Shown here piece after piece: positions 11,479-64,000 of a stretch of 64,000 nucleotides of DNA. This stretch comes from Bordetella parapertussis. GTDB lineage: Bacteria > Pseudomonadota > Gammaproteobacteria > Burkholderiales > SG8-41. Within the stretch, counting starts at the first letter, position 1; every line of letters starts with the position of its first letter. The stretch spans positions 3,155 through 67,154 of the forward strand of contig CAMDSO010000005.1 of NCBI GenBank assembly GCA_945906935.1. Direction: 5' to 3'. Below the pieces are notes generated by a model. It searched no databases. It was not told the DNA's origin and saw only the letters and a program-made list of their open reading frames with translations. A program made the translations under genes and the position numbers.

Positions 11479-11556
11479 GGCGTGATTGGTGAGGCCTGGG
11501 GCGGAGCGATCTTTGACGCGCAGGCGCAGCGGTTCAGCTTGCGCCCACCTCACGCC
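11479..11556. repeat. Imperfect extragenic palindrome directly after the glyA stop (arms GGCGTGA-TT-GGTG / CACC-TCACGCC)
   Basis: GGCGTGA (11479-11485) pairs with TCACGCC (11550-11556), and GGTG (11488-11491) pairs with CACC (11546-11549). It could be a glyA terminator-like or REP-like element. There is no U-tract. Confidence 0.4.
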
Positions 11557-11582
11557 TGACGCCTGGCGCATCACGAACTGAC

Positions 11583-23217: not shown

Positions 23218-24198
23218 CTATTCCGGTTTCAAACCGAGTGCCGATAGCACTTTTGCCGTCTTCGGGCCGTCGATACGCACAGTATTGCGCATGCTCTCCG
23301 GGGTGGAGAGCAACGGCATGATGCCCAGATCGTTGTAGCGTTCCTTTAACTCGGGCAGGTTAACGATGCGGTGGATCTCGCTGTTCAGCTTTGCGACGAT
23401 AGCGGTGGGCAGGCTTTTGGGGGCGATCACGCCCCACCACTGTGTGGGTAATTCATCGCGGACGCCGGATTCGCTCATGGTCGACACGCCGGGTAGCGCC
23501 GGCGAGCGTTCGGCGGTGGTGACGGCCAGTGCACGCAGGCGGTTGCCACGGATTTGCGGCACGGCGGGCACCATGTCGGAGAAGGCCATTTCGATCTGGC
23601 CGCCGACCACATCGGCGACGGCGAGTACGGCGCCTTTGTACGGCACGTGGACGATGTCGAGCTTCTCGATCGATTTGAATACTTCAGCAACGATGTTGAC
23701 GGTGCTGCCGAGGCCGGCTGAACCGTAACTCAATTTATTCGGCTGTTTGCGCGCGAGCGCGATCAGTTCCTTGACGTTGCGCGCCGGCACCGCCGGATGC
23801 ACTACCAGCACGTGGCCGGAGTAGGCGATCAAGGTGATATGAGTAAAGTCGTTGAGCGGATCGAACGGCAGTTTCTTATACAGATATTGGTTGTTGACCA
23901 TCTGCGACTTGGTGGTCAGCAGCAGGGTGTAGCCGTCGGCGGGCGCCTTGGCAACGATCTCATGGCCGATGTTGCCGGCAGCGCCCGGACGGTTTTCAAC
24001 GATGACCTGTTTACCCAGCGACTCGCTGAGCTTCTGTGCCAGAACGCGCGCCATCACGTCGCTCGAACCGCCGGGTGGGTAGGGCGCCACGAAGCGCACC
24101 GGTTTGACCGGATAGGCGTCTTGCGCCTGCGCCACCAGTGTGAAGAACAGGGCGGCGCAAAGCATGACGGCGGTTGTTGCTGCGGTGATCATCTTCAT
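23218..24198 (-). CDS. Bug family (TctC-like) tripartite tricarboxylate transporter substrate-binding protein
   Basis: 326 aa with a signal peptide, then YPVKPVRFVAPYPPGGSSDV and the Bug C-terminal pattern. No tctA/tctB genes are nearby. Confidence 0.9.
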   Translation of the reverse strand: MKMITAATTAVMLCAALFFTLVAQAQDAYPVKPVRFVAPYPPGGSSDVMARVLAQKLSESLGKQVIVENRPGAAGNIGHEIVAKAPADGYTLLLTTKSQMVNNQYLYKKLPFDPLNDFTHITLIAYSGHVLVVHPAVPARNVKELIALARKQPNKLSYGSAGLGSTVNIVAEVFKSIEKLDIVHVPYKGAVLAVADVVGGQIEMAFSDMVPAVPQIRGNRLRALAVTTAERSPALPGVSTMSESGVRDELPTQWWGVIAPKSLPTAIVAKLNSEIHRIVNLPELKERYNDLGIMPLLSTPESMRNTVRIDGPKTAKVLSALGLKPE

Positions 24199-50528: not shown

Positions 50529-50553
50529 TGAAGCTACCCCGGAAAGGAATGCG

Positions 50554-51258
50554 ATGACCCAGCTCGCATTGGTCATAGACCTCAATGTCTGCGTCGGCTG
50601 TCATGCCTGCGTCACCAGCTGCAAACAATGGAATGACAGCGGCAGCGCCGGTCCTCTGAGCGACCAGAATCCCTACGGCAAGGACCCGAGCGGCACGTTT
50701 TTCAATCGCGTGCAGACCTGGGAGGCCGGTGAGTTTCCGGCCACCGAGACGGTGCATTTTCCGAAATCCTGTTTGCATTGCGAGGATCCGCCCTGCGTGC
50801 CGGTGTGTCCGACGGGGGCGAGTTACAAACGGGCCGAAGACGGCATCGTTCTGATCGACTACGACAAATGCATCGGCTGTAAATACTGCGCATGGGCTTG
50901 TCCCTACGGTGCGCGCGAGGTCGACGAGCAGCAGCATGTGATGAAGAAGTGCACGCTATGCGTGGACCGTATTTATGATGACAAGCTGCCGGAGGCCGAA
51001 CGCAAGCCGGCCTGTGTGATCGCCTGCCCGACCAGCGCGCGGCTGTTTGGTGATGTGCATGATCCGGCCTCCGAGGTGTCCAAGGCCATCAGCGAGCGCG
51101 GCGGGTATGCGCTGATGCCCGAGTGGGAAACGAATCCAGCCAACCGCTATCTGCCACGCAAGCCGACCACCGCGGTGGCTGCGGCGCCGGCACAGGGCGA
51201 AGATCCGCGTGGCATCGACGGCGCGTTTGATCTGAACCCGACGGGGGGGCAGGTATGA
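50554..51258 (+). CDS. 4x[4Fe-4S] ferredoxin-type electron-transfer subunit (DmsB/PsrB/SoeB-like)
   Basis: The start at ATG 50554 follows GGAAAGGA. There are four Cys clusters: CVGCHACVTSC, CLHCEDPPCVPVCP, CIGCKYCAWACP and CTLC...CVIACP. Confidence 0.9.
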   Translation: MTQLALVIDLNVCVGCHACVTSCKQWNDSGSAGPLSDQNPYGKDPSGTFFNRVQTWEAGEFPATETVHFPKSCLHCEDPPCVPVCPTGASYKRAEDGIVLIDYDKCIGCKYCAWACPYGAREVDEQQHVMKKCTLCVDRIYDDKLPEAERKPACVIACPTSARLFGDVHDPASEVSKAISERGGYALMPEWETNPANRYLPRKPTTAVAAAPAQGEDPRGIDGAFDLNPTGGQV

Positions 51259-52193
51259 AGCCGGCGTGGTCTGTTATTTTTCTGACGACCTTGATCGGGG
51301 CCGGGCAGGGCTTGTTCCTGGCGATGGCCGGTGTCGAAGCTGCCGCGAGTGTAGGCATGATGGCGCCGGTGGCCGCTGATTTTTTTGTCACCGGCAGTTT
51401 TTTTGCGACCCTGTTGCTGGTGTGTGGATTGGGTGCCTCCTTCCTGCATCTTGGGCATCCCGAACGTGCGTGGCGGGCCGTCGTCATGTGGCGCACCTCG
51501 TGGTTGTCACGTGAAGTGATCGTGCTGCCGGCGTTTATCGCCGCGGTCATCGCTTACGGCTACGCGCATGCCGAGGGCTGGAATTGCACCGGCTGGATTG
51601 CCGCCGCCGGCTTGTTGTTGTGTATCGCCCTGTTTGTCTGCACGGCGATGATTTATAGCTGCCTGAAATTTCTGCAGGAGTGGCATACGCCGCTCACATG
51701 CGCGAACTTCTTTTTTCTGGGCGCGGCTTCTGGGACGTTATTGGCGGCTGCTCTTGCCGCAACAGCGTGGCCGCTGATCGTGCCGCGGCTGGCGGTGGCG
51801 GCGGCCGTGTTGATTGCGGCGGGCGCGGTGACGCGCAGTTTGTCACTTGTGCGCAATGCACGGTTACGGCCGAAATCCACAGTGCAAAGCGCGACTGGTA
51901 TCGTCAATCCGAAAATCGTGCAAAAGGCGCAGGGGGCGATGGGCGGCAGTTTCAATACCCGCGATTTTTTTCACGGCCGCAGTGCCGCGGCATTACGCCT
52001 GGTGAAATGGTTTTTTCTGCTGACGGTGTTCGTACTGCCGCTGGCGATGATACTGCTCGCGCTTGAGCAGGGGCGGTCGCAATGGCTAGTGGTTGTGTTT
52101 GGCCTGCAATATGCCGGCTTGCTGGCCGAGCGCTGGTTTTTCTTTGCGCAGGCGCGGCATCCGCAAAATCTTTATTATCAAGCCATCTCCTGA
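51255..52193 (+). CDS. DmsC-type polytopic membrane anchor subunit (SoeC-like)
   Basis: 312 aa with ~8 hydrophobic segments. It overlaps the stop of the FeS subunit gene (ATGA). Confidence 0.8.
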   Translation: MKPAWSVIFLTTLIGAGQGLFLAMAGVEAAASVGMMAPVAADFFVTGSFFATLLLVCGLGASFLHLGHPERAWRAVVMWRTSWLSREVIVLPAFIAAVIAYGYAHAEGWNCTGWIAAAGLLLCIALFVCTAMIYSCLKFLQEWHTPLTCANFFFLGAASGTLLAAALAATAWPLIVPRLAVAAAVLIAAGAVTRSLSLVRNARLRPKSTVQSATGIVNPKIVQKAQGAMGGSFNTRDFFHGRSAAALRLVKWFFLLTVFVLPLAMILLALEQGRSQWLVVVFGLQYAGLLAERWFFFAQARHPQNLYYQAIS

Positions 52194-52212
52194 TCCCTCT
52201 GGCTTGAAATTC

Positions 52213-53097
52213 ATGAAGTGGTTGTGGTGCCTCCTGTTTGCGGCGTATGGCGTCGCGGCGGTGGCCGGGGTTGTCGCCACCGACGACCGTGGCGTCACGC
52301 TGAACCTGCGCGCGCCCGCCACCCGCATTATTGCGCTGGCCCCTTCAATCACGGAAATGGTGTTCGCCGCCGGTGCCGGTGCGCAACTCGTGGCGGTGCC
52401 GCGCTACAGTGATTTTCCAGCGCAGGCCGCCGTGCTGCCGCAGATCGGTGACGCCTCGAGCATAGATGCCGAACGCATCGTCGCCCTGCGGCCGGATCTC
52501 GTCATCGGCTGGAAAAGCGGCAACCGTGCTGCCGATATCGCACGCCTGGAACGCCTCGGTCTGAAGCTGTTCCTCATCGAACCGCTGGTGCTCGATGACC
52601 TGCCGCGTGCGTTGAGGGCGATCGCGACGCTGGCCGGAACTCTGTCTGTGGCGGAGTCCGCCGCGGCTGCATTCGAGACGCGTGTGGCGGCCTTGCGTGC
52701 GCGTTATGCCGGCGCGACCAAGGTTCGCGTGTTCTACGAAATCTGGCATCAGCCCCTGATGACCGTGAACGACCGTCACATCATCAGCGATGTGTTGCGC
52801 GTTTGTGGCGGCGAGAATATTTTTGCGACGCTGCCGGTGTTGACGCCGGTGGTGTCCCTCGAGGATGTGATGGCACGTAAACCGCAGGTGGTGTTGGGTG
52901 GCGGATCGTCGTTGTCAGCGGATGAATTGGCGGCGTTGTGGCGCGCGCCGACACGCCTGACCGGGCTGCGCGATCTGCCGGTAAGGTATGTCAATCCGGA
53001 TGCGATACAACGGCAGACGCTGCGCGTGTTGACGGGCGCCGAGGAAGTCTGCCGGCATCTTGATTCAGTACGCGACGCGCTGCACGCGCAACGCTGA
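52213..53097 (+). CDS. BtuF-like periplasmic binding protein (cobalamin/iron-siderophore ABC SBP family)
   Basis: The real start is ATG 52213 (MKWLWCLLFAAYGVAAVAG signal). It has the RIIALAPSITEMVFAAGAGAQLVAV and DLVIGW patterns. No cognate permease or ATPase gene is in the window. Confidence 0.75.
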   Translation: MKWLWCLLFAAYGVAAVAGVVATDDRGVTLNLRAPATRIIALAPSITEMVFAAGAGAQLVAVPRYSDFPAQAAVLPQIGDASSIDAERIVALRPDLVIGWKSGNRAADIARLERLGLKLFLIEPLVLDDLPRALRAIATLAGTLSVAESAAAAFETRVAALRARYAGATKVRVFYEIWHQPLMTVNDRHIISDVLRVCGGENIFATLPVLTPVVSLEDVMARKPQVVLGGGSSLSADELAALWRAPTRLTGLRDLPVRYVNPDAIQRQTLRVLTGAEEVCRHLDSVRDALHAQR

Positions 53098-53103
53098 CTG
53101 GCC

Positions 53104-54084
53104 TCATTCGGCTTTCAGTCCCGCCGCCTTGATGACGCGGCCCCACTTGTCGATTTCGGATTGGATGAAGGCGCCGAATTGTTCTGGTGTGTTGCCGACC
53201 GGTTCGGCGCCGTCAGCGAGTAGGCGCTCGCGTATCTCTGGAATTTTCAGGATGGCGACGGTTTCTGCATTAAGTTTTGTGATCACGGCGCGCGCCGTGG
53301 CCTTGGGCGCCAGCATCCCGTACCAGGTGTAGGATTCATAACCCTTGACGCCGGCTTCATTCATGGTCGGTGTGTCGGGCAGCGTTTGCGAGCGGTGGGC
53401 GCCGCTCACTGCAAGCGCACGCACGCGACCGGTTTTGATCGAAGGCAGCGCGGTGTTGATTGAAATCGGCGTCAGCGGTACCTGTCCGCTGATCACATCA
53501 ATCAGTGCCGGTGAGGAGCCTTTATAGGGGATATGCGTCAGATCAATGCCGGCCATCAGCTTGAGTAACTCGCCGGCGAGATGTCCGCCGGTGCCGTTAC
53601 CCGCCGTGCCGAAAGTGATCTGGCCGGGTTTTGCCTTGGCCATCGTGATCAGATCCTGCAGAGTCTTCGCCGGAAAATTCGTTCCGGCGAGCAACACGAT
53701 CTGTTGCGAGGCAACGTGCGTGATTGGGGCGAAATCGCGTATCGGATCGTATGGCAGGTTGCGCGTCAGGCTGACGTTGGTGGCCATCGACGATATCGTT
53801 GCCATGATCAGGGTATAGCCGTCGGGCGCGGCGCGTGCGGTGAGTTCACCGGCAATCACGCCACCCGCGCCAGAGCGATTGTCGACCACTACTTGCTGAC
53901 CCCAGCGTTCACCGAGCCGCGCGCCGATGGTGCGGGCGAGCATGTCGACACTGCCACCGGGCGTGCTGGGCACAATGATGCGGATCGGTTTGCTTGGGTA
54001 AGTCTGGGCTGTACAAAATGCCGGCGATAGTGCCAACGTGAGCGTTGGCACGATTAGGGTCGCAAGGCTGACAACTTTAAACAT
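53104..54084 (-). CDS. Bug family (TctC-like) TTT substrate-binding protein
   Basis: 326 aa with a signal peptide, YPSKPIRIIVPSTPGGSVDM, and the C-terminal PEQFGAFIQSEIDKWGRVIKAAGLKAE. Confidence 0.9.
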   Translation of the reverse strand: MFKVVSLATLIVPTLTLALSPAFCTAQTYPSKPIRIIVPSTPGGSVDMLARTIGARLGERWGQQVVVDNRSGAGGVIAGELTARAAPDGYTLIMATISSMATNVSLTRNLPYDPIRDFAPITHVASQQIVLLAGTNFPAKTLQDLITMAKAKPGQITFGTAGNGTGGHLAGELLKLMAGIDLTHIPYKGSSPALIDVISGQVPLTPISINTALPSIKTGRVRALAVSGAHRSQTLPDTPTMNEAGVKGYESYTWYGMLAPKATARAVITKLNAETVAILKIPEIRERLLADGAEPVGNTPEQFGAFIQSEIDKWGRVIKAAGLKAE

Positions 54085-54327
54085 GAGTTAATCGTTCTGA
54101 AAATTTTGTCTGACGCTCATTCTAGGTCACGGCTTGCCAATCCCCAAGCATCCGCCGTGCAATTTTTCGCCGCCGCAGCCCTGCGTCTAGGCCAACTCAG
54201 CCGCTCCAGTCATACGTGTCGCAGGCGGAAGGCCGTTCTGAATATGGGATAATCATCGTCAGCCCGGAGTTTATTTTTTGCGCGTAGCAGTGGCGCCGCA
54301 TCGTTACGTAATACAAAGGAGATTTGT

Positions 54328-55224
54328 ATGGCAAGTAAAGGCCGCCAGTTCAAAGAGTTGATCAATGCCCCTGAGATTTTGATCCAGCCGGGCATCTATG
54401 ACGGATATACCGCGCGCTTGGTTGAGGCGAGCGGCTTTAAGGCTGCATCCATTTCCGGGGCTGGTGTGTCGGAGAGCCGCATGGGCTGGCCTGACCGCGG
54501 CATCATGACGTTCGACGAAAATCTCAACAACGCACGCCGCCTCGCCGACTGCACCGACAATCTGCTGTTGCGCGCCGATGCTGATACCGGATACGGCAAC
54601 GCGATGACCGTGCATTTTGTGGTTCGCGCCTTCGAGAAAGCCGGTATGGCCGCCTTGATGTTTGAAGATCAGGTGTGGCCGAAACGCTGTGGCCACATGG
54701 CTGGCAAGTCATGCATCCCCGCAGAAGAAATGGTACAGAAGGTCAAGGCTGCGGCCGATGCGCGGCGCGACGACGATTTTTGCATCGTTTCGCGCACCGA
54801 TGCGGCCGGTCCACATGGTGTTGATGAGGCGATTCGCCGCCTTAATTTATACGCCGAAGCGGGTGCCGATGTGCTCTATGCCGATGCGCTGTTGTCGAAG
54901 GAAGACATTGCCAAGGTGGCGAAGAATGTGCCGAAAAAACTCATCGTCAACATGGGTCTTGGACTGCGTTCGCGTGCCACCACGCCGTTGATGTCGCCGA
55001 AGGAACTTGAGGATCTGGGGGTGGGTGGTGTCAGCTATCCGCGCATACTGTCCACCGCGGCGTTGAAGGGCATGATGAACGCCATGGCGGTCTTCAAGGA
55101 AGAAGTGGTCAAGCATAACCGCGTGGTCGACCGTCCGGATCTGCTGGCATCGTTCGATGAACTGAACGACCTGATGGGCATGGAGCGTTTGGACGAGCTT
55201 GAGAAAAAATTTGTCGGTGGTTGA
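54328..55224 (+). CDS. PEP mutase / isocitrate lyase superfamily enzyme (methylisocitrate-lyase / dimethylmalate-lyase / oxaloacetate-decarboxylase-like)
   Basis: 298 aa with a start after AAAGGAG. Motifs: PGIYDG..A, DADTGYGN, and the flexible-loop motif EDQVWPKRCGHMAGK (the K-[RK]-C-G-H of this superfamily). Confidence 0.85.
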   Translation: MASKGRQFKELINAPEILIQPGIYDGYTARLVEASGFKAASISGAGVSESRMGWPDRGIMTFDENLNNARRLADCTDNLLLRADADTGYGNAMTVHFVVRAFEKAGMAALMFEDQVWPKRCGHMAGKSCIPAEEMVQKVKAAADARRDDDFCIVSRTDAAGPHGVDEAIRRLNLYAEAGADVLYADALLSKEDIAKVAKNVPKKLIVNMGLGLRSRATTPLMSPKELEDLGVGGVSYPRILSTAALKGMMNAMAVFKEEVVKHNRVVDRPDLLASFDELNDLMGMERLDELEKKFVGG

Positions 55225-55244
55225 TAGAAGGGGGTAACTGCGTT

Positions 55245-56498
55245 ATGGGTATGACCATCGCTGAGAAGATACTCGCGAAAAAGAGCGGTTTGAAAAAAGT
55301 CGGTGCGGGGGATCTCGTTACGGTTGCCGTTGATACAGTGATTTTGTTCGACAACAACTTCATGACCAATCGCTGGCGCGAAGTCCTGAAGGTGAACAAC
55401 CCCGACAGCATTGTCGTCGTCTTTGATCACCGCGTGCCGGCGGCCACACAAGCCTCGGCTACCGCACATGGCATTGGCCGCGAGTTTGTCGCGCGCTTTG
55501 GCATCAAGCGTTTTCATGATGTCGGTTACTCACAGGGTATCGCGCACCAGTTGGTGGCCGATCATGGCTACGGACTGCCGGGCAGTGTCTTGTTGTGCAG
55601 TGATTCGCATACCTGCTCGGGCGGGGTGTTCAATTGCATCGCGCGCGGCGTCGGCCAGCCCGACATTGTGTATGCGGCGTGCAAGAACGAAACCTGGTTC
55701 CGGGTCGGTGAAACCATTCGTTATGAACTCACCGGCGCATTGTCGCGTGCGGTGACGGCCAAGGACGCCTTTTTGCAAATCGCCGGTGAATATGGTGATC
55801 ACGCAACGATGAATGTCGAGTTCGGTGGCGCCGGCATGAAGAGTCTGAGCATCAACGCGCGCAAAACACTGACCACCATGGCGGCGGAACTGTCCGCCGA
55901 GTTCGCGACCTTCGAGCCCGATGACGTGATGCTGGAGTGGGTGCGTGCGCGTAATCCGGCCCCTTTCGAGGCTGTCTATGCGGACGCCGACGCCCGCTAT
56001 GCCGCCGTGCGCACGGTCGATCTTGGCGTGCTGACCCCGCTGGTGGCTTATCCGGACAGTGTGGTCAACAACTCGCGACCGGTTGGTGACGCGGCGGGGA
56101 CGAAGATCGATCAGGCGTTTATCGGTTCCTGTGCCAACGGCACCCTGGATGATCTGGAACTTGCGGCTTCCATCCTTGACGGACGCCGTGTTTCATCCAA
56201 GGTACGTTTGATTATCACGCCGGCGTCGCAACTCGTTTATCGCGAAGCACTCAAGAGCGGTGCGATTGCCAAACTGATCGATGCCGGCGCGGTGGTGACG
56301 CCGGCGACCTGCGGCGCCTGCGGCGGTGGACATCTGGGCGTGCTCGGACCGAACGAAACCTGCATCACGGCGACCACGCGCAATTTCAAAGGGCGTATGG
56401 GCGACCCTAGCGCAAAAATCTTTATGGGTTCGCCGGCAACGGTGGCGGCTTCCGCGATCACGGGCACGATTACCGACCCGCGCGAATTTCTGCAGTAA
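55245..56498 (+). CDS. Aconitase-family hydro-lyase large subunit, short LeuC/HacA/DmdA-like type
   Basis: ~417 aa with MTIAEKILAKKSG, and Cys ligands in SDSHT, GSCANG and CGACGGG contexts. Start is ATG 55245 or 55251; the track start is TTG 55221. Confidence 0.85.
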   Translation: MGMTIAEKILAKKSGLKKVGAGDLVTVAVDTVILFDNNFMTNRWREVLKVNNPDSIVVVFDHRVPAATQASATAHGIGREFVARFGIKRFHDVGYSQGIAHQLVADHGYGLPGSVLLCSDSHTCSGGVFNCIARGVGQPDIVYAACKNETWFRVGETIRYELTGALSRAVTAKDAFLQIAGEYGDHATMNVEFGGAGMKSLSINARKTLTTMAAELSAEFATFEPDDVMLEWVRARNPAPFEAVYADADARYAAVRTVDLGVLTPLVAYPDSVVNNSRPVGDAAGTKIDQAFIGSCANGTLDDLELAASILDGRRVSSKVRLIITPASQLVYREALKSGAIAKLIDAGAVVTPATCGACGGGHLGVLGPNETCITATTRNFKGRMGDPSAKIFMGSPATVAASAITGTITDPREFLQ

Positions 56499-56623
56499 AA
56501 ATTTTGCCACAGTGGGCGCAGTAGACGTAGAGCGAAGAAAACAGCTGATTGCATTTGCGAAGACGCGAGCACGTTTGGCGGTTTTTCGCCCTCAAAATTT
56601 TCTGCGGCTGAAAGCGAGGTTCT

Positions 56624-57136
56624 ATGAAATTTCAATCACGCGTCTGGAAGTTTGGCGACAACATCAACACCGATCTGATTCTGCCGGTGCAGGCTTTTTA
56701 TTTGATGCCGGCCGAGCAGGCGCAGTGGGTGTTCCGTGCCAACCGGCCAGGATGGTCGGAACAGGTGCAGGCGGGCGACATACTGGTTGGTGGACGTAAC
56801 TTCGGCATGGGTTCGAGCCGGCCGGCGGCGCGTTCACTGAAGAACCTTGGCTTGAGTTGTCTGGTTGCGCAATCGATCAATGGATTGTTTTTTCGCAATT
56901 GTGTGAACTTTGCATTTCCGGCGATGGAATGTGTGAATGTGTTTGCCACGTTTGAAGAAGGTGATGTTGCCGAGGTCGATTTCGATGCGGCGACCGTCAA
57001 AAACATCACCCGCGGCACCGCGCTGGAGGCGATCCCGCTGCCGCTCAAGCTGCTGGATCTGCTCAAGGCCGGCGGCATTTATGCGTTGCTCGAGAAGGAA
57101 GGTGCAATAGGTCCGAAGACCGCTGCGTCAGGCTGA
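56624..57136 (+). CDS. Aconitase-family hydro-lyase small subunit, short LeuD/HacB/DmdB-like type
   Basis: 170 aa with KFGDNINTD and GRNFGMGSSR motifs. It is separated from the large-subunit gene by an unusual 125-nt spacer. Confidence 0.85.
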   Translation: MKFQSRVWKFGDNINTDLILPVQAFYLMPAEQAQWVFRANRPGWSEQVQAGDILVGGRNFGMGSSRPAARSLKNLGLSCLVAQSINGLFFRNCVNFAFPAMECVNVFATFEEGDVAEVDFDAATVKNITRGTALEAIPLPLKLLDLLKAGGIYALLEKEGAIGPKTAASG

Positions 57137-57218
57137 GCCTCCGCGGCGTTTTGCTGACAGCCATCGAATGCCCCAGCTGTCAGCCGCAGGTCGTTGCCTG
57201 CCGGCGCAGCCAATACGA

Positions 57219-57473
57219 TTACTTCTTTTCCGTTTGCGCTTTCGGTTTACGACCAGGTGCGGCTGGCGGAATATAGCCGGCAATGCGGCACAGCACGGCT
57301 TCGATATGTTTGCCGTCGCGGAAGCGGATCGAGCGGCACACCATCACGTCACCCTTGGCGGAGAGGTCGGAGACCGCGACACGCACATTTTCAACCGACA
57401 TGCCGGTTGCTGCGGCAATTTCGGAGTCTAGCCGTTCGCCGTGATTCTTCAAGTAATCCAGGATTCGCTGCAT
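57219..57473 (-). CDS. Small winged-helix DNA-binding protein (FeoC-like wHTH)
   Basis: 84 aa from ATG 57473, with GGAG 9 nt upstream. The sequence MQRILDYLKNHGERLDSEIAAATGMSVENVRVAVSDLSAKGDV shows a wHTH pattern, followed by a basic tail. The track ORF starts 11 codons earlier. Confidence 0.6.
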   Translation of the reverse strand: MQRILDYLKNHGERLDSEIAAATGMSVENVRVAVSDLSAKGDVMVCRSIRFRDGKHIEAVLCRIAGYIPPAAPGRKPKAQTEKK

Positions 57474-57730
57474 CCGAAATGCTCCAGATTGTAGTTGTTT
57501 AGGCATTTAAGTCCTGCATCGTCGACAGGATGTTTTCCACACGTGCTGCAGTTTCGCAATGGACCCTGTTTGTGTTCCTGGGAGCGGGCGGGATACTGTA
57601 TCGCCCGTTTGAAAATCCGGTTTTGCACACGGGAAGCAACCCGTGGTTGCAGAATTTTGGCGCCGGTATGCGGTTTGATCCTCAGCTTACTCTACCGTGA
57701 GCCTGTGCTCTCTCGCGCAACCTGCTTGCT

Positions 57731-57766
57731 ACACCAACACAACAGGCGACCGCGCACGGCCGCCTG
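57731..57766 (-). terminator. Rho-independent terminator of cspA
   Basis: Minus-sense CAGGCGGCCG-ugcg-CGGUCGCCUG (10-bp stem with one G.U pair) followed by UUGUGUUGGUGU. Confidence 0.6.
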
Positions 57767-57777
57767 CCAGAAACTCT

Positions 57778-57987
57778 TTACACAGCCTTCAGATTCACGG
57801 CCGACGTCTTGCCGTTATTGCCGCGCTCGAGGTCGAACGAAACAGTCTGGTTCTCGCTCAGCGTCGAGAGGCCGGCTTTTTCCACGGCGGAAATATGGAC
57901 GAAAACGTCCTTCGATCCGTCTTGCGGTGCGATGAAGCCGAAGCCCTTGGTTGCATTGAAAAACTTTACGGTGCCCGTAGTAGACAT
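57778..57987 (-). CDS. cspA: Cold-shock protein (CspA family)
   Basis: 69 aa from ATG 57987: [35 protein letters not shown] with RNP1 KGFGFI and RNP2 VFVHI. The track ORF has a spurious 29-codon extension. Confidence 0.95.
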
Positions 57988-58319
57988 GGTGTTCCTAGTA
58001 TATGTAATGCAATAGGCCGCGCACGATATTGAGCGCGGCATCAAATGATCCATCGGGAAAAATCGCAAAAACATCCGGAACGGATGTCAGGAGAACTTGC
58101 CAATAACCAATCGACCACGGGAGTTTCCATGCTGCGGGCGTTTCTGACAAGCGGAATCTTCGCCTGCTTTGTGCTGCCGCAGACCGCGACCGTCTTCTTA
58201 AGCGGCCGACTTAGTGTCTGCAGTAGTTTGATTTATATGGTTATTGGTCTGATGTGCCGGTGTTTGCTTAGCGCCGCCCAGCCCCCTCGGCTGGACCGTC
58301 TAAAACCGCTTGCAGCGCC

Positions 58320-59294
58320 TTATTTAACATCAACGCCGGAAATCTTGACGATTTCGGTGATGGATTTCCTCTGGTCGGCGCGGAATTTATCCAGTTCGGC
58401 GCGATCGCTACCGACGATTTCGAGGCCAAGGCCCTTGAGTTGCTCGCCGAATTGCGGGTCTTTGACGATCTTGCTGATCGCGGCGCTGGCCTTGGCCAGT
58501 ATCGGCTCCGGCACGCCGGTCGGGGCGACCACGCTGTACCAGGCGAGCGTTTGATAGCCCGGAATGGCTTCGGAGATCGAGGGTACGTCGGGCAGCAGCT
58601 GGCTGCGGCGCGGTCCGGTCACGCCGAGCGCCCGCACGCGGCCGGATTGCACCGCACCGAGCATTGCCGGCACCACGCCATAGGTCAGATTGACTTCCTT
58701 GCCCATGGTCGCGGCCATCGCTTCGGCCACGCCCTTGTACGGAACGTGCAGCATGTCGGTACCGGTGAGTTTGGTGAACAGAACGCCAGACAGATGCTCC
58801 GACGCGCCGGTGCCTGCCGAACCGTACTTAAGCGGCGTTTTCTTCGCCGCTTCGATGAGCTCCTTGATCGACTTCGCCGGAATTTCGGGATTGACGACTA
58901 GTACGAACGAGGTCGTCCCGATCAGGCTCAGCGAGACGAAATCTTTTTCGAGGTTGAACTTGACGTTCGGGAACACCGCGGTGGCAACCAATAATTGCGA
59001 GGTCAGCATCATCCATGTGTAGCCGTCGGCTGGCGCTTGCAGCACCAGATCGGCACTGAGGACGCCGGCGACGCCGGGCCGTGAGTCAACCACCACGCGC
59101 TGGCCCCAGGCGCCGAAAAGGCGGTCGGCCAGTGCGCGCGAAATGATGTCTGGTCCTGAACCTGGCGCGCTACCGATGACGAGTCGGACCGGTTTTTCAG
59201 GAAAGCTGGTCTGCGCGGCGGAGGCACCGGTGCAGAAGGCAGTGACGAGCACAAGGGAAGATACAACGACGGTCATAAATTTTCGAGTGCGCAT
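58320..59294 (-). CDS. Bug family (TctC-like) TTT substrate-binding protein
   Basis: The start at ATG 59294 (MRTRKFMTVVVSSLVLVTAFCTGASA) follows AAGGA. It has the FPEKPVRLVIGSAPGSGPDI and HVPYKG patterns. Confidence 0.9.
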   Translation of the reverse strand: MRTRKFMTVVVSSLVLVTAFCTGASAAQTSFPEKPVRLVIGSAPGSGPDIISRALADRLFGAWGQRVVVDSRPGVAGVLSADLVLQAPADGYTWMMLTSQLLVATAVFPNVKFNLEKDFVSLSLIGTTSFVLVVNPEIPAKSIKELIEAAKKTPLKYGSAGTGASEHLSGVLFTKLTGTDMLHVPYKGVAEAMAATMGKEVNLTYGVVPAMLGAVQSGRVRALGVTGPRRSQLLPDVPSISEAIPGYQTLAWYSVVAPTGVPEPILAKASAAISKIVKDPQFGEQLKGLGLEIVGSDRAELDKFRADQRKSITEIVKISGVDVK

Positions 59295-59465
59295 TTTTTT
59301 CCTTGGTAAACGTTCGACTGGATTTGCTGCGTGCAAGGGCGGGGCCGAAGGCGAGATTTTAGTCTAACCGCAGCGGTGCTGCAGAAGCCAGTGACAGGCC
59401 GGGGTAAGGGCGCTGCCAGCTATGCTAGGATAGCCCAAAACTACGCGCTTGCGCCGGAGAGTCCA

Positions 59466-60371
59466 ATGTCATCGGTTTTGCCAAACACTGCTGTTCAATA
59501 CGTCTACGATTTTGCGCTGCTGGATCAAGTCCCTGCGGGGACGACCAGTGCACGCGTGGCGGCTAAACGCCTGTTGTCAGGGCCGACTTTGCAGACCGGC
59601 AAATCGTCAACGGTCGGTGCCGTCCTGACAGGACTTCACTTGATCGTCACGCTGGGGCGCCAGACTCGTGGCTCTGGTGCCAAGGCGCATACCCACCCGA
59701 ACGAACAGGTCAACTACATCGTGCGGGGCGTGATGACCGGCGAGATCGAAGGTGAGCAGGTCTTCGCCCCGGTCGATACGCTGCTGCATACGCCGTCGCG
59801 CGCCGTGCATACCGGCATGGCCTGTCCCGACGAGGATCTGGTCTTCTTTGCCATGAAAGACACCCGTCATGGTATCGTCGGGCCACCCGTCGATGGCCAA
59901 TACAACGGCCCCAATTTTTTGCCCGGCTTCGGTACTCGTGCGACCGAAACTGCGCAATCGACAGCGCAATTAATGGCGGCCTGCCGTGGAGATACGGCCG
60001 GTGAAAAGACGCGCTACATCTACGATTTCGCACGGCTTGCCGAAAAACCCGGACGCGTTGCCAGCGCCCAGGTCACCCCTAGTGTGGCCGCAGGCATCTG
60101 GACGGGCGATCTGGTCAGCGGCGAGACCTTGCACGTGGCGCGCCTGCGTGCGGCCGCAGGCTTGCGGGGCGCAGTACATAGTCATGCGAATGAACAGTTC
60201 GTATTTGTTGCGGCGGGTGAGGTCGTGGCCGAAGTCGACGGCATCGAACATCGTGTTGGCCGGCACTGTACGCTACATGTGCCGCCCGGCATGCCGCACA
60301 GTCTCAGCCCCGCCGGGCAGGACGCCTTGATCATCGTTTCGCAGGATACCCATCACGCTTTTGCCGGCTGA
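59466..60371 (+). CDS. Bicupin protein, domain order A-B
   Basis: 301 aa from ATG 59466. The first barrel has GSGAKAHTHPNEQVNYIVRG ... KDTRHGIVGPPVDG..GPNFLPGFG. The second barrel has AVHSHANEQFVFVAAG ... LHVPPGMPHSL. Confidence 0.8.
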   Translation: MSSVLPNTAVQYVYDFALLDQVPAGTTSARVAAKRLLSGPTLQTGKSSTVGAVLTGLHLIVTLGRQTRGSGAKAHTHPNEQVNYIVRGVMTGEIEGEQVFAPVDTLLHTPSRAVHTGMACPDEDLVFFAMKDTRHGIVGPPVDGQYNGPNFLPGFGTRATETAQSTAQLMAACRGDTAGEKTRYIYDFARLAEKPGRVASAQVTPSVAAGIWTGDLVSGETLHVARLRAAAGLRGAVHSHANEQFVFVAAGEVVAEVDGIEHRVGRHCTLHVPPGMPHSLSPAGQDALIIVSQDTHHAFAG

Positions 60372-60386
60372 CACTGGCGCAGTTAC

Positions 60387-60565
60387 TTATTCCAGCTTGA
60401 TGCTGGCTTTGTGTATGAGGCTGCCGTAGCGCGCGTTATCTTCGCGCACAAATTCGCCAAATTTCTTGGTGAACGTCGCACTGGATTGGCGCCGATTTGT
60501 AGCAACTGCCGCGATGCTGCGGGCGTCGCGATGGCGCGGTTGGCCGTTGCGGATAGCTCTGCGCC
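60387..60565 (-). pseudogene. C-terminal remnant of a Bug-family gene, frameshifted and 5'-truncated
   Basis: Two minus-strand frames together read ...LSATANRAIATPAASRQLLQIGANPV / (frameshift near 60480) / ATFTKKFGEFVREDNARYGSLIHKASIKLE*. This parallels the C-termini of the intact copies (e.g. LNAETVAILKIPEIRERLLADGAEPVGNTPEQFGAFIQSEIDKWGRVIKAAGLKAE*). Confidence 0.65.
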
Positions 60566-60644
60566 ACTGCGTTGACCGCGCGCCAAGCAAACACGATGGC
60601 AACGTTGAGCAGGTGCTACCACATGAGTGTGTATGGCATGCTGC

Positions 60645-61613
60645 TTACTCGGGCTTGAGTCCAGCGAGCTTGACCATTTTGCCCATCTGTACAAAATCAT
60701 CACTGATGATGCGGGTGAAATCGGCGACGCTCGAATACGCGGGTTCCTCGCCCTGCGCCATGTAGAGCTGGCGCAGGTCGGTAGTGCCGAGAACATCGCG
60801 CATCACGCCATTGAGTTTGTCGACCACGGGGCGCGGTGTCGCGCGCGGCGCCAGCACACCGTTCCAGCCGTAATAACGAAAACCGGCGACCCCCGCTTCA
60901 GCGATGGTAGGCAGCTCGGGCGTTAGTGCGGAGCGTTTATCACCGCCGGTGGCGAGGCAGCGTACGCGGCCAGCTTTGACATGGCTGCCGTAAGCGCCAT
61001 AGGGCCCCATGGTCCATTGCGACTCGCCCTGCACCAAGGCCAGGGCCGACGGCCCGCCGCCTTTGTAGGGAATATGGTTGCCTTCAATTCCCGCCAGGGT
61101 GGCGAACATCAGCCCGCCCAAATGGCTGGTCGAGCCGATGCCGGCCGAGGCCATGTTGAGTTGGCCCGGTTTTGATTTCGCCAGGTCGATAAATTCGCGC
61201 AGCGTTTTTACCGGCAGGCCGGCATGCACGCAGAGCGCGGTTTCAGTTTTGACGAATACCGACACCGGCAGAAAATCCTTCAGCGGATCGAAGCCGACTT
61301 TTGCGTAGACATGCGGCGCGATGGTCATCACCGCCGCGGTGACGGTTATTAGCGTATAGCCATCGGCCACCGCACGCGCCGAGGTTTCCACGCCGAGCGT
61401 ACCGCCAGCCCCTGGCCGGTTGTCGATGACGATCTGTTGGCCGAGTCGCTCGGACATGCGGGTAAAAACGATGCGCCCGTAGATGTCGCTGGCACTGCCC
61501 GGCGCATTGGCGACGATCATGCGGATCGGGCGGTTGGGATAGGGGTCGGCTGCCGCCACCGATGCGGCTGCAAGCGCGTTGATCGCGCCAAATAATAAAT
61601 ACTGGTAACGCAT
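60645..61613 (-). CDS. Bug family (TctC-like) TTT substrate-binding protein
   Basis: The start at ATG 61613 (MRYQYLLFGAINALAAASVAAA) follows GGAGA. It has YPNRPIRMIVANAPGSASDI, and the C-terminus ends KLAGLKPE. Confidence 0.9.
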   Translation of the reverse strand: MRYQYLLFGAINALAAASVAAADPYPNRPIRMIVANAPGSASDIYGRIVFTRMSERLGQQIVIDNRPGAGGTLGVETSARAVADGYTLITVTAAVMTIAPHVYAKVGFDPLKDFLPVSVFVKTETALCVHAGLPVKTLREFIDLAKSKPGQLNMASAGIGSTSHLGGLMFATLAGIEGNHIPYKGGGPSALALVQGESQWTMGPYGAYGSHVKAGRVRCLATGGDKRSALTPELPTIAEAGVAGFRYYGWNGVLAPRATPRPVVDKLNGVMRDVLGTTDLRQLYMAQGEEPAYSSVADFTRIISDDFVQMGKMVKLAGLKPE

Positions 61614-61791
61614 ACGTTCTCCATGACTGACACGAATAGTCTCGCACATCTGCCGCATTGCGCCTAGCAATACTGCTATGCGCGCCTGCACTGCCACGGG
61701 TTTGGCGTGACTTTCGGTGTGGTGCGATAATCGAAGCAAACACGCGCGCTGTTGTTCTTCAATCACAAGCGTGTTCTCCCGGAGGATCTTG

Positions 61792-62691
61792 ATGTCCGCA
61801 ACCGAGCACGCACAGCACTGCTATGTATATGACCTTGTTACGCCAGGGCCGCCGCCAGCCGTGGCTTGCAGTGCGCTGTTGGATCAGCGCAGCAGCGGTT
61901 CATTAAGCGGCGTATCCGTCGAGGGCGCTCGCGCCAGTGTCGCACTGTTGCAGGCGCGGCGCGGTGCGGGTTGTTCGGTGCAAGTATCGGCGGCAGAGAA
62001 ATTTTTTTTCGTGCTGGAAGGTGCGCTGACGGCTGATCTCGACGGGCGCCTGCATGAAGTGCCGGCGCAACATGCACTGCATGTGCCCGCTGGCATGCCG
62101 CATTCCCTGCGTGCGGGATGCGACACACGCTTTATCCTGGCGCTCTCGCGCAACGCCGCCGCCATGGCCGGTGTGTTTGATGATGCCGGCTGGGTCGAGC
62201 ATGCCAATGCCGCGACCCAGTCTGTCACGCGGCAGAGTGGCGACGTGGTGATGCGTTATGTTTACCCGATTGATGAACTCAGCGCGGTGCCGCCCGGTGC
62301 GTCGAGCGCGAAAGTTGTGCCGAAGAATTTCGTCTCCGGGAAATCGAGTTCGTTTGGCGCCGCCTTGAGTGGCGCCGCACTGCACGTTGGTGTCATTCAC
62401 AAGGCGCGCGGTTCGGGCGCCAAGCTGCACACCCATCAGAACGAGCAATTCAATGTCGTTCTGCAAGGAAGGTTGCTTGGCGAGATCGCTGCTGCGCCGA
62501 TGGATGTGGCGCCTTACGGTCTAGTGCATATGCCGGCCGGTGTGCCTCATTGCACCATGGCCAGCGCCGACGGCGATATCGCGGTGTTTGTGGTCAAGGA
62601 TACGAGCCACGGTTTATCCGGCCCGCCGGTCGACGGCATCGAAGACGGTCCACGTTATCTGCCGGGCTTCGGGCCGCGCGCCAGCGTTTAA
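61792..62691 (+). CDS. Bicupin protein, domain order B-A (permuted relative to 59466-60371)
   Basis: 299 aa from ATG 61792, which follows GGAGGA. The first barrel has ...FFFVLEG...LHVPAGMPHSL with no HxH. The second barrel has GSGAKLHTHQNEQFNVVLQG ... KDTSHGLSGPPVDG..GPRYLPGFG. Confidence 0.8.
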   Translation: MSATEHAQHCYVYDLVTPGPPPAVACSALLDQRSSGSLSGVSVEGARASVALLQARRGAGCSVQVSAAEKFFFVLEGALTADLDGRLHEVPAQHALHVPAGMPHSLRAGCDTRFILALSRNAAAMAGVFDDAGWVEHANAATQSVTRQSGDVVMRYVYPIDELSAVPPGASSAKVVPKNFVSGKSSSFGAALSGAALHVGVIHKARGSGAKLHTHQNEQFNVVLQGRLLGEIAAAPMDVAPYGLVHMPAGVPHCTMASADGDIAVFVVKDTSHGLSGPPVDGIEDGPRYLPGFGPRASV

Positions 62692-62704
62692 TCAGGAGTT
62701 TGTA

Positions 62705-63883
62705 ATGGATGTACGTTTAGCCGAAGAACAGCTGGCATGGCAGGCCAAGGCGCGGCAATTTGCAGAAGAGGTGCTGCGTCCGCATTCGCTCGCCCGCGAC
62801 CAAATTGCCGATCCGCGTGCAGCATTCGACTGGGAAATTGTCAAGGAAGGTTCGCGCCTGGGCTTTCGTACCGCGGTGGTGGCCAAGGCGTGGGGTGGTC
62901 ACGGCATTGATCTGGTGACGCAGGCGCTGGTTATCATGGAACTCGCGCGCGGCGACAGCGCAATGGCGAAAACCTTCAGCCAGTGCTGGAAATGGAGTCA
63001 TCTGATTGCTGCGTTTTGTTCGCCCGACCAGAAGGATCGTTATCTCAAAAAGTTTCTCGACGACGATACTTTTTTGCTCGGGCACGCCGGCACCGAACCG
63101 AACTCCGGCTCCGATCACCGGCTGCCGCCCGAAGATGATCCGAAATCCGGCTGGCGTCTGAAGGCCGAGCGCCGTGGCGACGAGTGGATTTTGAACGGCG
63201 AGAAATGTTTCATCGCCAACGGTTCGGTGGCGAAGCTGTTTTTCGTCGATGCGCGCACCAATCCGAATGTCAGCATCCGCGAGGGCGGCACCGAGTTTTT
63301 GATTCCGATCGACACGCCCGGGCTGCGCATTGGCAAGGTCTTCAACAAGCGCGGCTGGCGTTTTTACCAGAACGCCGAATTGATATTCGAGGATGCGCGC
63401 GTGCCGCACGCCAATGTGGTGGGTGAAGTCAACGGCGCTTACAAGACCCGCCACGGCACCTTTGGCGACCTTGAACTCTCGGCCAATGCCGTGGGCGTTT
63501 GCGATGACGCGCTGGAGATGGCGATGACGCATGCGCGCACGCACCTTCCGCAGTCGCGTTACTTCAAGGACAACCAGCACGTGCAACTGAAGATTTCCGA
63601 AATGCACATGCTGACCGAGGCGTTGCGCTCGTTTGTGATGCGCGTGGCCGGTGAGGGCGATGCGAAGATCGGGAACCATTCGGTCAACAACGTGTTGCTG
63701 ATGAACTTTGCCACCGACGTGGTGCAGAAGGTGACCGCGCTCAATCTTGAGGTGATCGGTGCGCGCGGCGGTGGGATTCCGGCGCGTGCCGACAAGATTG
63801 CGCGCGATGCGGTGATCTGGACGCATCTGGCCGGCGATTCGATCCAGCGCATGAAAGCGGTGCGCCGCCTGAAGTGGAACTGA
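62705..63883 (+). CDS. Acyl-CoA dehydrogenase family protein
   Basis: 392 aa from ATG 62705. It shows the typical three-domain ACAD pattern (AEEVLRP...; GTEPNSGSD; W.LNGEK.FI.NG; a C-terminal helical domain with a conserved G...IW). Confidence 0.85.
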   Translation: MDVRLAEEQLAWQAKARQFAEEVLRPHSLARDQIADPRAAFDWEIVKEGSRLGFRTAVVAKAWGGHGIDLVTQALVIMELARGDSAMAKTFSQCWKWSHLIAAFCSPDQKDRYLKKFLDDDTFLLGHAGTEPNSGSDHRLPPEDDPKSGWRLKAERRGDEWILNGEKCFIANGSVAKLFFVDARTNPNVSIREGGTEFLIPIDTPGLRIGKVFNKRGWRFYQNAELIFEDARVPHANVVGEVNGAYKTRHGTFGDLELSANAVGVCDDALEMAMTHARTHLPQSRYFKDNQHVQLKISEMHMLTEALRSFVMRVAGEGDAKIGNHSVNNVLLMNFATDVVQKVTALNLEVIGARGGGIPARADKIARDAVIWTHLAGDSIQRMKAVRRLKWN

Positions 63884-63905
63884 ACATCAACGGAGAACAA
63901 GGGTC

Positions 63906-64000
63906 ATGCTGAAAATAGGAATTTTGCTGGGTGACGATATCGGCCTCGAAGTGGTGCCCGAAGCGGTCAAGGTGATGAAGGCGGCAGCGGCGAAAACCGG
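63906..64000 (+). CDS. Isocitrate/isopropylmalate dehydrogenase family protein. N-terminal 31 codons only; the gene runs off the right edge.
   Basis: Hand translation gives MLKIGILLGDDIGLEVVPEAVKVMKAAAAKT. This matches the family N-terminus (K-I-x-x-L-x-G-D-x-I-G-x-E-V). Confidence 0.6.
   Translation, partial: MLKIGILLGDDIGLEVVPEAVKVMKAAAAKT

Follow-up and report, generated by a model that had tools for sequence, protein, structure and literature searches.

The last 11 kb of a 64,000-nucleotide stretch of Bordetella parapertussis DNA (assembly GCA_945906935.1, contig CAMDSO010000005.1, positions 3,155 to 67,154 of the forward strand; hereafter the window) contain a gene trio encoding a carbon-carbon lyase and the large (LeuC-like) and small (LeuD-like) subunits of an aconitase-family hydro-lyase. 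The trio is a real co-conserved operon, shared by dozens of uncultured Burkholderiales from fresh water and soil. In our view, the region probably represents a catabolic neighbourhood on the chromosome that is made up of separable modules, the core of which is a periplasmic binding protein, BugA, together with this hydrate-then-cleave trio. A preliminary description of the same DNA had proposed an accessory island in which a lyase and hydratase resembling Dml and DmdAB, together with binding proteins, bicupins and two dehydrogenases, served the uptake, hydration and cleavage of a substituted maleate- or malate-type acid. Uptake, hydration and cleavage is a reasonable proposal and remains the best reading of the core; the enzyme Dml is not the closest solved relative of the lyase, and the 11 kb do not form one pathway.

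BugA, a Bug/TctC solute-binding protein of 326 aa (53104-54084, minus strand; PF03401, E=1.4e-75, 254.8 bits against a cut-off of 27), is divergent from the lyase operon, and the 243 nt between them (54085-54327) are presumed from their position to hold the promoter region. On the plus strand follow the lyase (54328-55224, 298 aa), the LeuC-like subunit (55245-56498, 417 aa), a spacer of 125 nt and the LeuD-like subunit (56624-57136, 170 aa). Families were assigned by Pfam and NCBIfam profile scans with curated cut-offs, and by an open reading frame (ORF) listing and the precomputed annotation of identical metagenome contigs. The gene map agrees between these sources, and the gene inventory first drawn up for the 11 kb held, all genes lying at or near the positions assigned to them.

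To survey the conservation of the trio, we compared the window proteins by tblastn with 80 species-level loci, for which each GTDB species supplied one genome (individual loci are given as L numbers), and the gene orders of these loci were obtained by gene calling filtered on GC content at third codon positions and by clustering. Counts of trio neighbours are limited to loci with a LeuC-like protein of at least 70% identity and enough flanking sequence. A lyase orthologue (at least 60% identity) lies directly upstream of the LeuC-like gene on the same strand in 44 of 48 loci, the LeuD gene lies directly downstream in 50 of 53, and a Bug gene of any kind is found within 3.5 kb in 28 of 32. These counts make the trio a conserved unit, and the gene-neighbourhood comparison suggested in the preliminary description thus came out as co-conservation as far as the trio is concerned. 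Since a Bug gene is a regular neighbour, the order of uptake, hydration and cleavage is a reasonable one. Copies similar to BugA itself (at least 55% identity) were found in 21 of 36 related loci. When one genome was scanned for each GTDB species, only metagenome-assembled genomes (MAGs) labelled Betaproteobacteria or Burkholderiales matched, the best with 93% identity, and their sources were lakes, reservoirs, groundwater and soil. Homologues of the LeuC-like protein at E <=1e-30 number thousands, and the best 120 of these are 74-98% identical. As a distant case, a Leucobacter MAG (L087) pairs a PEP-mutase-type (PEPM) protein of 38% identity with a LeuCD-like pair.

A larger architecture around the trio is recurrent. 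Its upstream half consists of a major facilitator superfamily (MFS) gene on the minus strand, an ADP-forming acyl-CoA synthetase, an acyl-CoA dehydrogenase (ACAD) and an SDR gene, followed by a Bug gene and a PEPM paralogue, both on the minus strand. From the lyase onwards, the order is lyase, LeuC, LeuD, an HbpS-like gene, a cupin of about 150 aa, a D-Ser-dehydratase-like gene and a HIBADH-like gene. The family names were confirmed by the precomputed Pfam annotation of two long contigs. In many relatives (L014, L018, L020, L022, L042, L045, L049, L051, L054, L056, L059, L060, L076 and L090), this divergent PEPM/isocitrate lyase (ICL) paralogue separates BugA from the lyase and runs on the opposite strand, and the window lacks it; it is 33-36% identical, keeps a Glu at the position of PrpB residue 182 and has no loop insertion. 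The synthetase-ACAD-SDR block is found 4-8 kb upstream of the trio in L091/L092, L093 and about 16 survey loci. Its members are a synthetase of about 707 aa, an ACAD of 379 aa (23-28% identical to the ACAD of the window) and an SDR of 258 aa, and in L093 it is accompanied by genes of the Amdase/maleate-isomerase family. The block could process the carboxylic acid released by the lyase.

As for the hydratase, profile matches place the pair in the archaeal-type, short two-subunit aconitase subfamily and outside both LeuC/LeuD and HacAB. The LeuC-like subunit passes subfamily models only, i.e., NF001614 (438.2 bits against 385), TIGR01343 (hacA_fam; 418.5 against 385.7) and TIGR02086 (IPMI_arch; 416.4 against 410.15), which place it with the archaeal IPMI/HACN type. 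It scores below the equivalogs TIGR00170 (leuC; 183.1 against 560.25), TIGR02083 (LEU2; 367.1 against 610.65) and NF040615 (HacA; 341.3 against 550). Likewise, the LeuD-like subunit passes the LeuD/DmdB family model TIGR02087 (121.2 against 108.95) and stays below TIGR02084 (leuD; 123.8 against 245.85), TIGR00171 (29.2 against 116.25) and NF040625 (HacB; 112.7 against 230). The Fe-S cluster cysteines C296, C356 and C359 of the LeuC-like subunit are invariant among homologues. With all leuC and leuD equivalog cut-offs missed and the archaeal-type and LeuD/DmdB models passed, the distinction from leucine biosynthesis drawn in the preliminary description is upheld.

The closest solved structures are, nonetheless, biosynthetic. 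The best PDB match of the large subunit is the isopropylmalate (IPM)/citramalate isomerase of M. jannaschii (4nqy/4kp1, 1.4e-99), that of the small subunit is MJ1277 of the same type of enzyme (3vba, 7.2e-39), and in the annotation of the Joint Genome Institute (JGI) the protein is called '3-isopropylmalate/(R)-2-methylmalate dehydratase'. On these grounds, the pair might be a biosynthetic isopropylmalate or citramalate isomerase with unrelated neighbours. We regard this as very improbable given that, besides missing every leuC/leuD equivalog cut-off, the pair has a C-C lyase and a Bug gene as fixed neighbours in over 40 species, that no leuA or leuB adjoins it, and that the nearby Iso_dh scores 193 against 353 for leuB. 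Moreover, two paralogues of the LeuC-like subfamily are carried on different contigs by at least five MAGs (L028/L031, L035/L064, L040/L074, L071/L076 and L070/L077), a pattern typical of catabolic expansions. No second leuCD copy was found in the 64-kb window or the matching 87-kb contig.

The specificity loop of the LeuD-like subunit, PVQAFYLMP, is hydrophobic. It aligns to PARYLVYTKP of MJ1277 and is unlike the Arg-Thr loop YLRTTDP of homoaconitase (2pkp). Work by Drevland and by Jeyakanthan is said to have shown that this small-subunit loop selects the substituent. The hydrophobic loop thus suggests that an alkyl side chain is favoured over a carboxyalkyl one.

The lyase had been described as a PEP-mutase/isocitrate-lyase-superfamily protein with a KRCGH loop, and PF13714 (E=3.2e-48, 164.9 bits against 31.5) and the loop at residues 119-123 confirm it. 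Three motifs, DADTGYG, EDQVWPKRCGH and SRTDA, are invariant or nearly so in 42 orthologues, by which the Mg ligands and the catalytic Cys loop are kept. The highest-scoring NCBIfam model is PrpB, the cut-offs of which are missed by far (TIGR02317, 232.4 against 354.4; NF008455, 198.8 against 353). The scores for PEP mutase (97.5 against 319.55), phosphonopyruvate hydrolase (102.2 against 374.4) and CPEP mutase (212.6 against 420.05) are also below the cut-offs, and a role in phosphonate biosynthesis is ruled out by these scores and the KRCGH loop. Among solved structures, the petal death protein (1zlp, 6.8e-58 over residues 10-295) comes first, followed by PrpB (3eoo) and other PrpB entries.

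Taken together, the core may work as follows. BugA would capture an organic acid in the periplasm. The heterodimeric [4Fe-4S] hydro-lyase would hydrate or isomerise a C4-dicarboxylate that has a cis double bond and an alkyl substituent and is of the citraconate, alkylmaleate or alkylmalate type. The KRCGH lyase would then cleave the C2-C3 bond of the 2-hydroxy-3-substituted succinate so formed, giving a carboxylic acid together with glyoxylate or pyruvate as the 2-oxo acid. The alkyl-C4-dicarboxylate is suggested by membership in the IPM/citramalate-isomerase subfamily together with the hydrophobic specificity loop, and the products of the lyase by its conserved Mg and Cys catalytic set.

Several observations weigh against this scheme. 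Both the substrate and the direction of the reaction rest on family membership only. The A. niger Dml (3fa3), the one Dml with a solved structure, matches the lyase at 3.9e-40, weaker than the petal death protein and PrpB, and the likeness to the Eubacterium barkeri enzymes is one of family only. In 41 of the 42 lyase orthologues, the residue aligned with Glu182 of Coxiella PrpB is an Asp (D186); in the Coxiella enzyme, the exchange E182Q abolishes activity (10.1101/2025.01.06.631558). A four-residue insertion after the NM motif holds two arginines, R214 and R216, invariant in the 42 orthologues, and Arg239 of the YPR motif aligns with the product-contacting Arg231 of Coxiella PrpB. Arg239 and the pair R214/R216 might bind an extra carboxylate, i.e., point to a tricarboxylate; with this, the hydrophobic LeuD loop is at odds. 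Furthermore, the window locus lacks the CoA-ligase block found in relatives, and scans for consensus promoters and terminators gave no more sites than shuffled sequences and are uninformative for the operon. The signature of D186, the R214/R216 insertion and Arg239 shared by the 42 orthologues sets the lyase apart as a separate orthogroup.

These arginines speak for another explanation, in which the trio would be a variant of a methylcitrate- or isocitrate-type system, the LeuCD-like pair hydrating an aconitate-type acid (methyl- or homoaconitate included) and the lyase releasing succinate or glutarate and pyruvate or glyoxylate. PrpB being the top NCBIfam model (232 bits) speaks for it, as do the name of the Bug/TctC family, which refers to tricarboxylate transport, the proximity of Iso_dh to homoisocitrate dehydrogenase and the synthetase-ACAD-SDR block of the relatives, which could handle a dicarboxylate product. 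However, the lyase remains far below the PrpB cut-offs and has an Asp at the Glu182 position, the LeuD loop lacks the Arg-Thr of homoaconitase, and prpC, prpD, acnD and prpF are absent from the window, the 10 kb beyond it and the surveyed relatives. We therefore judge a tricarboxylate system unlikely and keep an alkyl-substituted C4-dicarboxylate as the preferred substrate of the trio.

The trio also has a second tier of conserved partners, made up of cupins and a GlcG/HbpS-like gene, which the preliminary description had overlooked. HbpS-like and cupin genes occur together in 20 of the 20 survey loci having either. The small cupin of the relatives (about 150 aa) is homologous to one domain of the bicupins of the window, with the common motif HxHPNEQ...KD..HG. 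In an independent protein search with bicupin A, its homologues were found between LeuD and the HbpS-like gene, beside the trio, in all four contigs examined, which links the cupin family to the trio. With their motif of the 3-His-1-Glu type, the cupins or bicupins would thus form, together with the GlcG/HbpS-like protein, a second-tier module belonging with the trio. In the window, bicupin A (59466-60371, plus strand, 301 aa; Cupin_2, E=1.7e-17) has two metal-site cupin domains, and among its homologues the metal ligands of the N-domain (H75, H77, E80 and H115) do not vary. It has no sequence match in the PDB and reached no specific family. An AlphaFold2 model (pLDDT 86, pTM 0.88) gave Foldseek matches of probability 1.0 and TM ~0.5-0.6 at 10-17% identity. 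The matches are generic (quercetinase, oxalate decarboxylase, salicylate/gentisate dioxygenase and BacB); they confirm the fold and assign no function. Bicupin B (61792-62691, plus strand, 299 aa) has the domain order swapped: residues 7-160 of bicupin A are 45% identical to residues ~151-298 of bicupin B, and the other domains are about 35% identical crosswise. Its N-domain has lost the metal motif, with VSAAEKF where HxHxxxE is expected.

Bicupin B opens a same-strand run with ACAD, Iso_dh, BugD and BugE, in which the gaps are 13, 21, 43 and -4 nt. The ACAD (62705-63883, plus strand, 392 aa) is a flavoprotein of the acyl-CoA-dehydrogenase fold with the N, M and C domains of Pfam Acyl-CoA_dh. 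It lies below every NCBIfam equivalog (best 165 against 640) and has an Ala at the position of MCAD E376 (IWTHLAGDSIQR). The Glu of its GDLE motif may occupy the base position of the IVD-254 type, where the alignment has a 2-residue gap and is uncertain. Iso_dh, a beta-decarboxylating dehydrogenase, begins at 63905 on the plus strand; its first 32 codons (63905-64000; translation begins MLKIGILLGDDIGLEV) end the window, and the full gene, recognised by PF00180, encodes 351 aa on the matching metagenome contig L007. It is below the specific models LEU3_arch (285.9 against 409.8), TTC (227 against 470.4) and leuB (192.6 against 353.2), and its best PDB match is the homoisocitrate dehydrogenase of Thermus (2e-64).

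This ACAD-Iso_dh-Bug operon is a module separate from the trio. The opposite idea, as put forward in the preliminary description, would make the whole 11 kb one pathway in which the three Bug proteins import one substrate class and the trio, bicupins, ACAD and Iso_dh act in sequence. All genes do lie within 11 kb, the bicupin family co-localises with the trio in several species, and L097 has the same arrangement of trio, bicupin, ACAD remnant, Iso_dh and HbpS. Yet ACAD and Iso_dh of the window type are absent from all 30 trio loci with at least 8 kb of downstream sequence. An 83%-identical ACAD belongs to a TctC-x-x-ACAD-Iso_dh-TctC block that has neither a lyase nor a LeuCD gene within 7 kb, so the module occurs without the trio. 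Other ACAD homologues lie in ACAD-ACAD-TctC or TctC-cupin-ACAD arrays and repeatedly adjoin Bug or cupin genes without a CoA ligase. Even in L097, the only locus with the arrangement of the window, the ACAD is shortened to 169 aa while the rest persists, and close relatives differ in what lies between LeuD and HbpS. A single pathway across the 11 kb is hence quite unlikely, and the claim does not stand for ACAD and Iso_dh. A combination of maleate hydratase (HbzIJ) and D-malate dehydrogenase as a reading of LeuCD and Iso_dh was rejected as well, since Iso_dh is not co-conserved and the lyase would be left without a role.

The variable stretch lies between LeuD and HbpS. Relatives L011, L095, L097 and L099 have a common frame of DmsABC, a periplasmic binding protein and BugA, then lyase and LeuCD, and finally HbpS, GT61, DHDPS, ILVD and HpcH. 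Within the LeuD-HbpS slot, all close relatives carry a probable winged-helix gene, cspA and a Bug gene. To these, L095 and L099 add further Bug genes as well as amidase and AstE-like ones, and in L099 there is also a YCII gene together with one that is ECF-sigma-like. L096 has several bicupins and a TRAP transporter, and the window and L097 have the bicupin/ACAD/Iso_dh set. The GC content is 0.55-0.62 on both sides of 53.1 kb, with no compositional break; no tRNA was found in the window, and no mobility genes in the window or the downstream contig stretch. Syntenic flanks, uniform GC and the lack of tRNA and mobility genes indicate a plastic slot in the chromosome instead of an acquired island. 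The term island is accordingly dropped, as flanks and core occupy the same site in relatives. The operon running from bicupin B to BugE would have landed in this slot in the lineage of the window, and the winged-helix-cspA pair would be a lineage-specific resident of it.

The slot of the window also holds Bug genes. BugB (58320-59294, minus strand; PF03401, E=1.9e-57, 195.3 bits against 27) is divergent from bicupin A, and BugC (60645-61613, minus strand; E=4.9e-65, 220.2 bits against 27) is divergent from bicupin B. BugB is 35% identical to BugA, and the Bug paralogues of the window are 33-42% identical to one another. Between BugB and BugC lies a frameshifted C-terminal remnant (~60387-60560, minus strand), detected by tblastn with the intact Bug that L095 has at the same site (E=3e-06); its C-terminal RYGSLIHKASIKLE tail is in another frame. 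This remnant at 60.4 kb is a scar of slot turnover. The count of three intact Bug/TctC genes and one decayed copy made in the preliminary description is therefore right, with PF03401 matched over the full length in all three. Its remark that the 11 kb hold no tctA/tctB and no LysR-, IclR- or GntR-type regulator was likewise borne out by domain scans, which found no TctA or TctB in the 11 kb and the 10 kb downstream and no LysR, IclR or GntR domain in the 11 kb; such a state is ordinary for Bug genes.

The two small genes of the slot are an 84-aa ORF (57219-57473, minus strand) and cspA (57778-57987, minus strand, 69 aa; PF00313, E=1.1e-23), a cold-shock gene of the CspA/CspE type. They are found together at the same site in the close relatives L011, L012, L095, L097 and L099. 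The 84-aa product had been called a winged helix-turn-helix protein; its weak matches are indeed all of the winged-helix type, and all are below the Pfam and NCBIfam thresholds (E 0.004-0.2), so that a winged-helix protein is probable. Identical proteins are named ArsR/MarR by NCBI and JGI. The sole match of the Rfam scan lies over cspA and its long 5' leader (57738-58131, minus strand), a sub-threshold hit to the cspA thermoregulator RF01766 with 28.6 bits against a gathering cut-off of 78 (E=3e-4).

The 125-nt spacer between LeuC and LeuD (56499-56623) is a dead copy of a dispersed repeat. It had been noted as an unusual feature of the operon; the spacer is there, and it is not an operon feature: some close relatives have it and others do not. 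In about 85 loci, the lengths of the LeuC-LeuD gap fall into two classes, -4 to ~30 nt and ~80 to 300 nt, and even close relatives can differ in class (6 nt in L012, 16 in L095, 119 in L011, 125 in the window and 136 in L097). The long gaps are hairpin elements, the arms of which consist of 2-4 tandem units of 7-10 nt and their reverse complements. The repeat unit is not the same in all genomes, nor always within a single locus (GCCACAGAG, CGCAAAGGA, CCGCCAAG, CGCCGATAAA and GTGAATR, for instance). Intact spacer elements fold at z -5.7 to -6.7 against shuffled sequences, compared with z=-0.36 for the window copy, which aligns to the intact same-site elements of L011 and L097 and has a degraded right arm. 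Similar elements are found at unrelated intergenic sites of the same loci. A structured regulatory RNA or riboswitch in the spacer was considered and rejected because the fold equals that of shuffles, close relatives lack the spacer, similar elements occur elsewhere and Rfam has no match there.

The dispersed element family as such spans ~80-250 nt and is built of 7-bp helices between small internal loops, and its intact copies have folding z-scores of -3.5 to -6.7. Under strict detection criteria, 65 copies were counted in roughly 1.3 Mb of sequence from related loci, the LeuC-LeuD junction being a recurrent insertion site. Besides the spacer, the window has an element at 11473-11562, and others lie at L011:11255-11372, L053:11255-11390, L020:11255-11400 and many further positions. 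The elements matched no named repeat family.

On either side of the 11 kb, further metabolic genes are found. Directly upstream (47661-53097) lie the genes of a DmsABC-type molybdopterin oxidoreductase and of a Peripla_BP_2 binding protein. The catalytic subunit of the oxidoreductase (955 aa) has an Fe4S4 domain at its N-terminus, and the other two subunits are a 4Fe-4S protein and a membrane protein resembling DmsC. A fourth Bug gene is located at 23221-24198. The switch from housekeeping genes at 53.1 kb, as seen in the preliminary description, is thus only partly tenable: these three upstream features are not housekeeping genes, and the composition does not break. Proteins identical to those of the window occur on metagenome contigs, and an 86.8-kb contig (ERZ27280264:k141_393201) prolongs the map downstream with the rest of Iso_dh, two further TctC genes and the GlcG/HbpS-like gene. 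After the latter (L007:14909-21179) follow GT61 and DHDPS-like genes on the minus strand, then a dehydratase of the ILVD/EDD family, an MFS transporter and an HpcH/HpaI aldolase, a set that resembles a sugar-acid dehydratase and aldolase route and is kept in L095 and L099.

A bolder proposal is possible. The trio, the GlcG/HbpS-like protein, the cupin and a dedicated Bug may form an undescribed route for a substituted maleate- or malate-type acid that is no substrate of the characterised ICL-family lyases, with Asp186 and R214/R216 as specificity determinants and a wide occurrence in uncultured freshwater, groundwater and soil Burkholderiales. We hold this tentatively, with somewhat less than even confidence. 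The literature on dimethylmaleate hydratase, dimethylmalate lyase, maleate hydratase and the petal death protein yielded mis-annotated PrpB genes only and nothing on the cluster. If true, the route could serve as a sign that a certain class of dissolved organic acids is consumed. The trio operon is among the more strongly conserved gene sets of unknown function found here in uncultured Burkholderiales. Knowing its substrate would assign a function to many metagenomic genes labelled 'isopropylmalate dehydratase' or 'methylisocitrate lyase-like', labels which are almost certainly wrong. It would also provide the ligand of one orphan Bug receptor and reveal a low-molecular-weight acid consumed by abundant heterotrophs.

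Among known systems, the nicotinate fermentation of E. barkeri comes closest in logic. There, dimethylmaleate hydratase DmdAB and 2,3-dimethylmalate lyase Dml reportedly act in succession, as described by Alhapel and colleagues in 2006. A Dml splits (2R,3S)-2,3-dimethylmalate into propionate and pyruvate. As in that system, a short LeuC/LeuD-type hydratase adjoins a PEPM/ICL lyase with a Cys loop, and the small subunit passes the LeuD/DmdB model. In contrast, the window lacks nicotinate-fermentation genes, the host is probably an uncultured betaproteobacterium, and Bug, cupin and GlcG/HbpS-like genes are linked to the trio. The petal death protein of Dianthus caryophyllus is said, in work by Lu and colleagues from 2005, to be a broad-specificity 2-alkylmalate lyase and oxaloacetate acetylhydrolase. 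Its DxDTG, EDQxxxKRCGH and RTDA motifs are identical to those of the window lyase, whereas it has FVEAP and AHS where the window lyase has YADAL and YPR, lacks the 4-residue insertion with two Arg, and works in the plant without a hydratase partner.

PrpB with AcnD/PrpF, or with PrpD/AcnB, follows the same hydrate-then-cleave logic, and its catalytic Cys, Lys, Arg and Mg ligands are found in the window lyase. The differences are the hydratase, which is of the LeuCD type and not AcnD, AcnB or PrpD, the Asp in place of Glu182 and the loop insertion. M. jannaschii MJ0499/MJ1277, the closest solved relative of both subunits, has similar lengths, the three cluster Cys and a hydrophobic loop. It differs from the pair described here in its biosynthetic context, as opposed to a catabolic one, and in the loop itself (PARYLVYTKP against PVQ-AFYLMP). 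As for the binding proteins, the orphan Bug (TctC-family) proteins of Bordetella and other Burkholderiales, reportedly treated by Antoine and colleagues in 2003, are a direct parallel: paralogous TctC genes scattered beside catabolic genes without tctA/tctB are the ordinary state of the family. Hydration by an aconitase-family enzyme followed by cleavage by an ICL-family lyase is already known, and the trio is therefore no new principle. The best-supported view is that the known logic of DmdAB/Dml and aconitase/PrpB is realised here by a new orthogroup, the new partners of which are Bug, GlcG/HbpS-like and cupin proteins.

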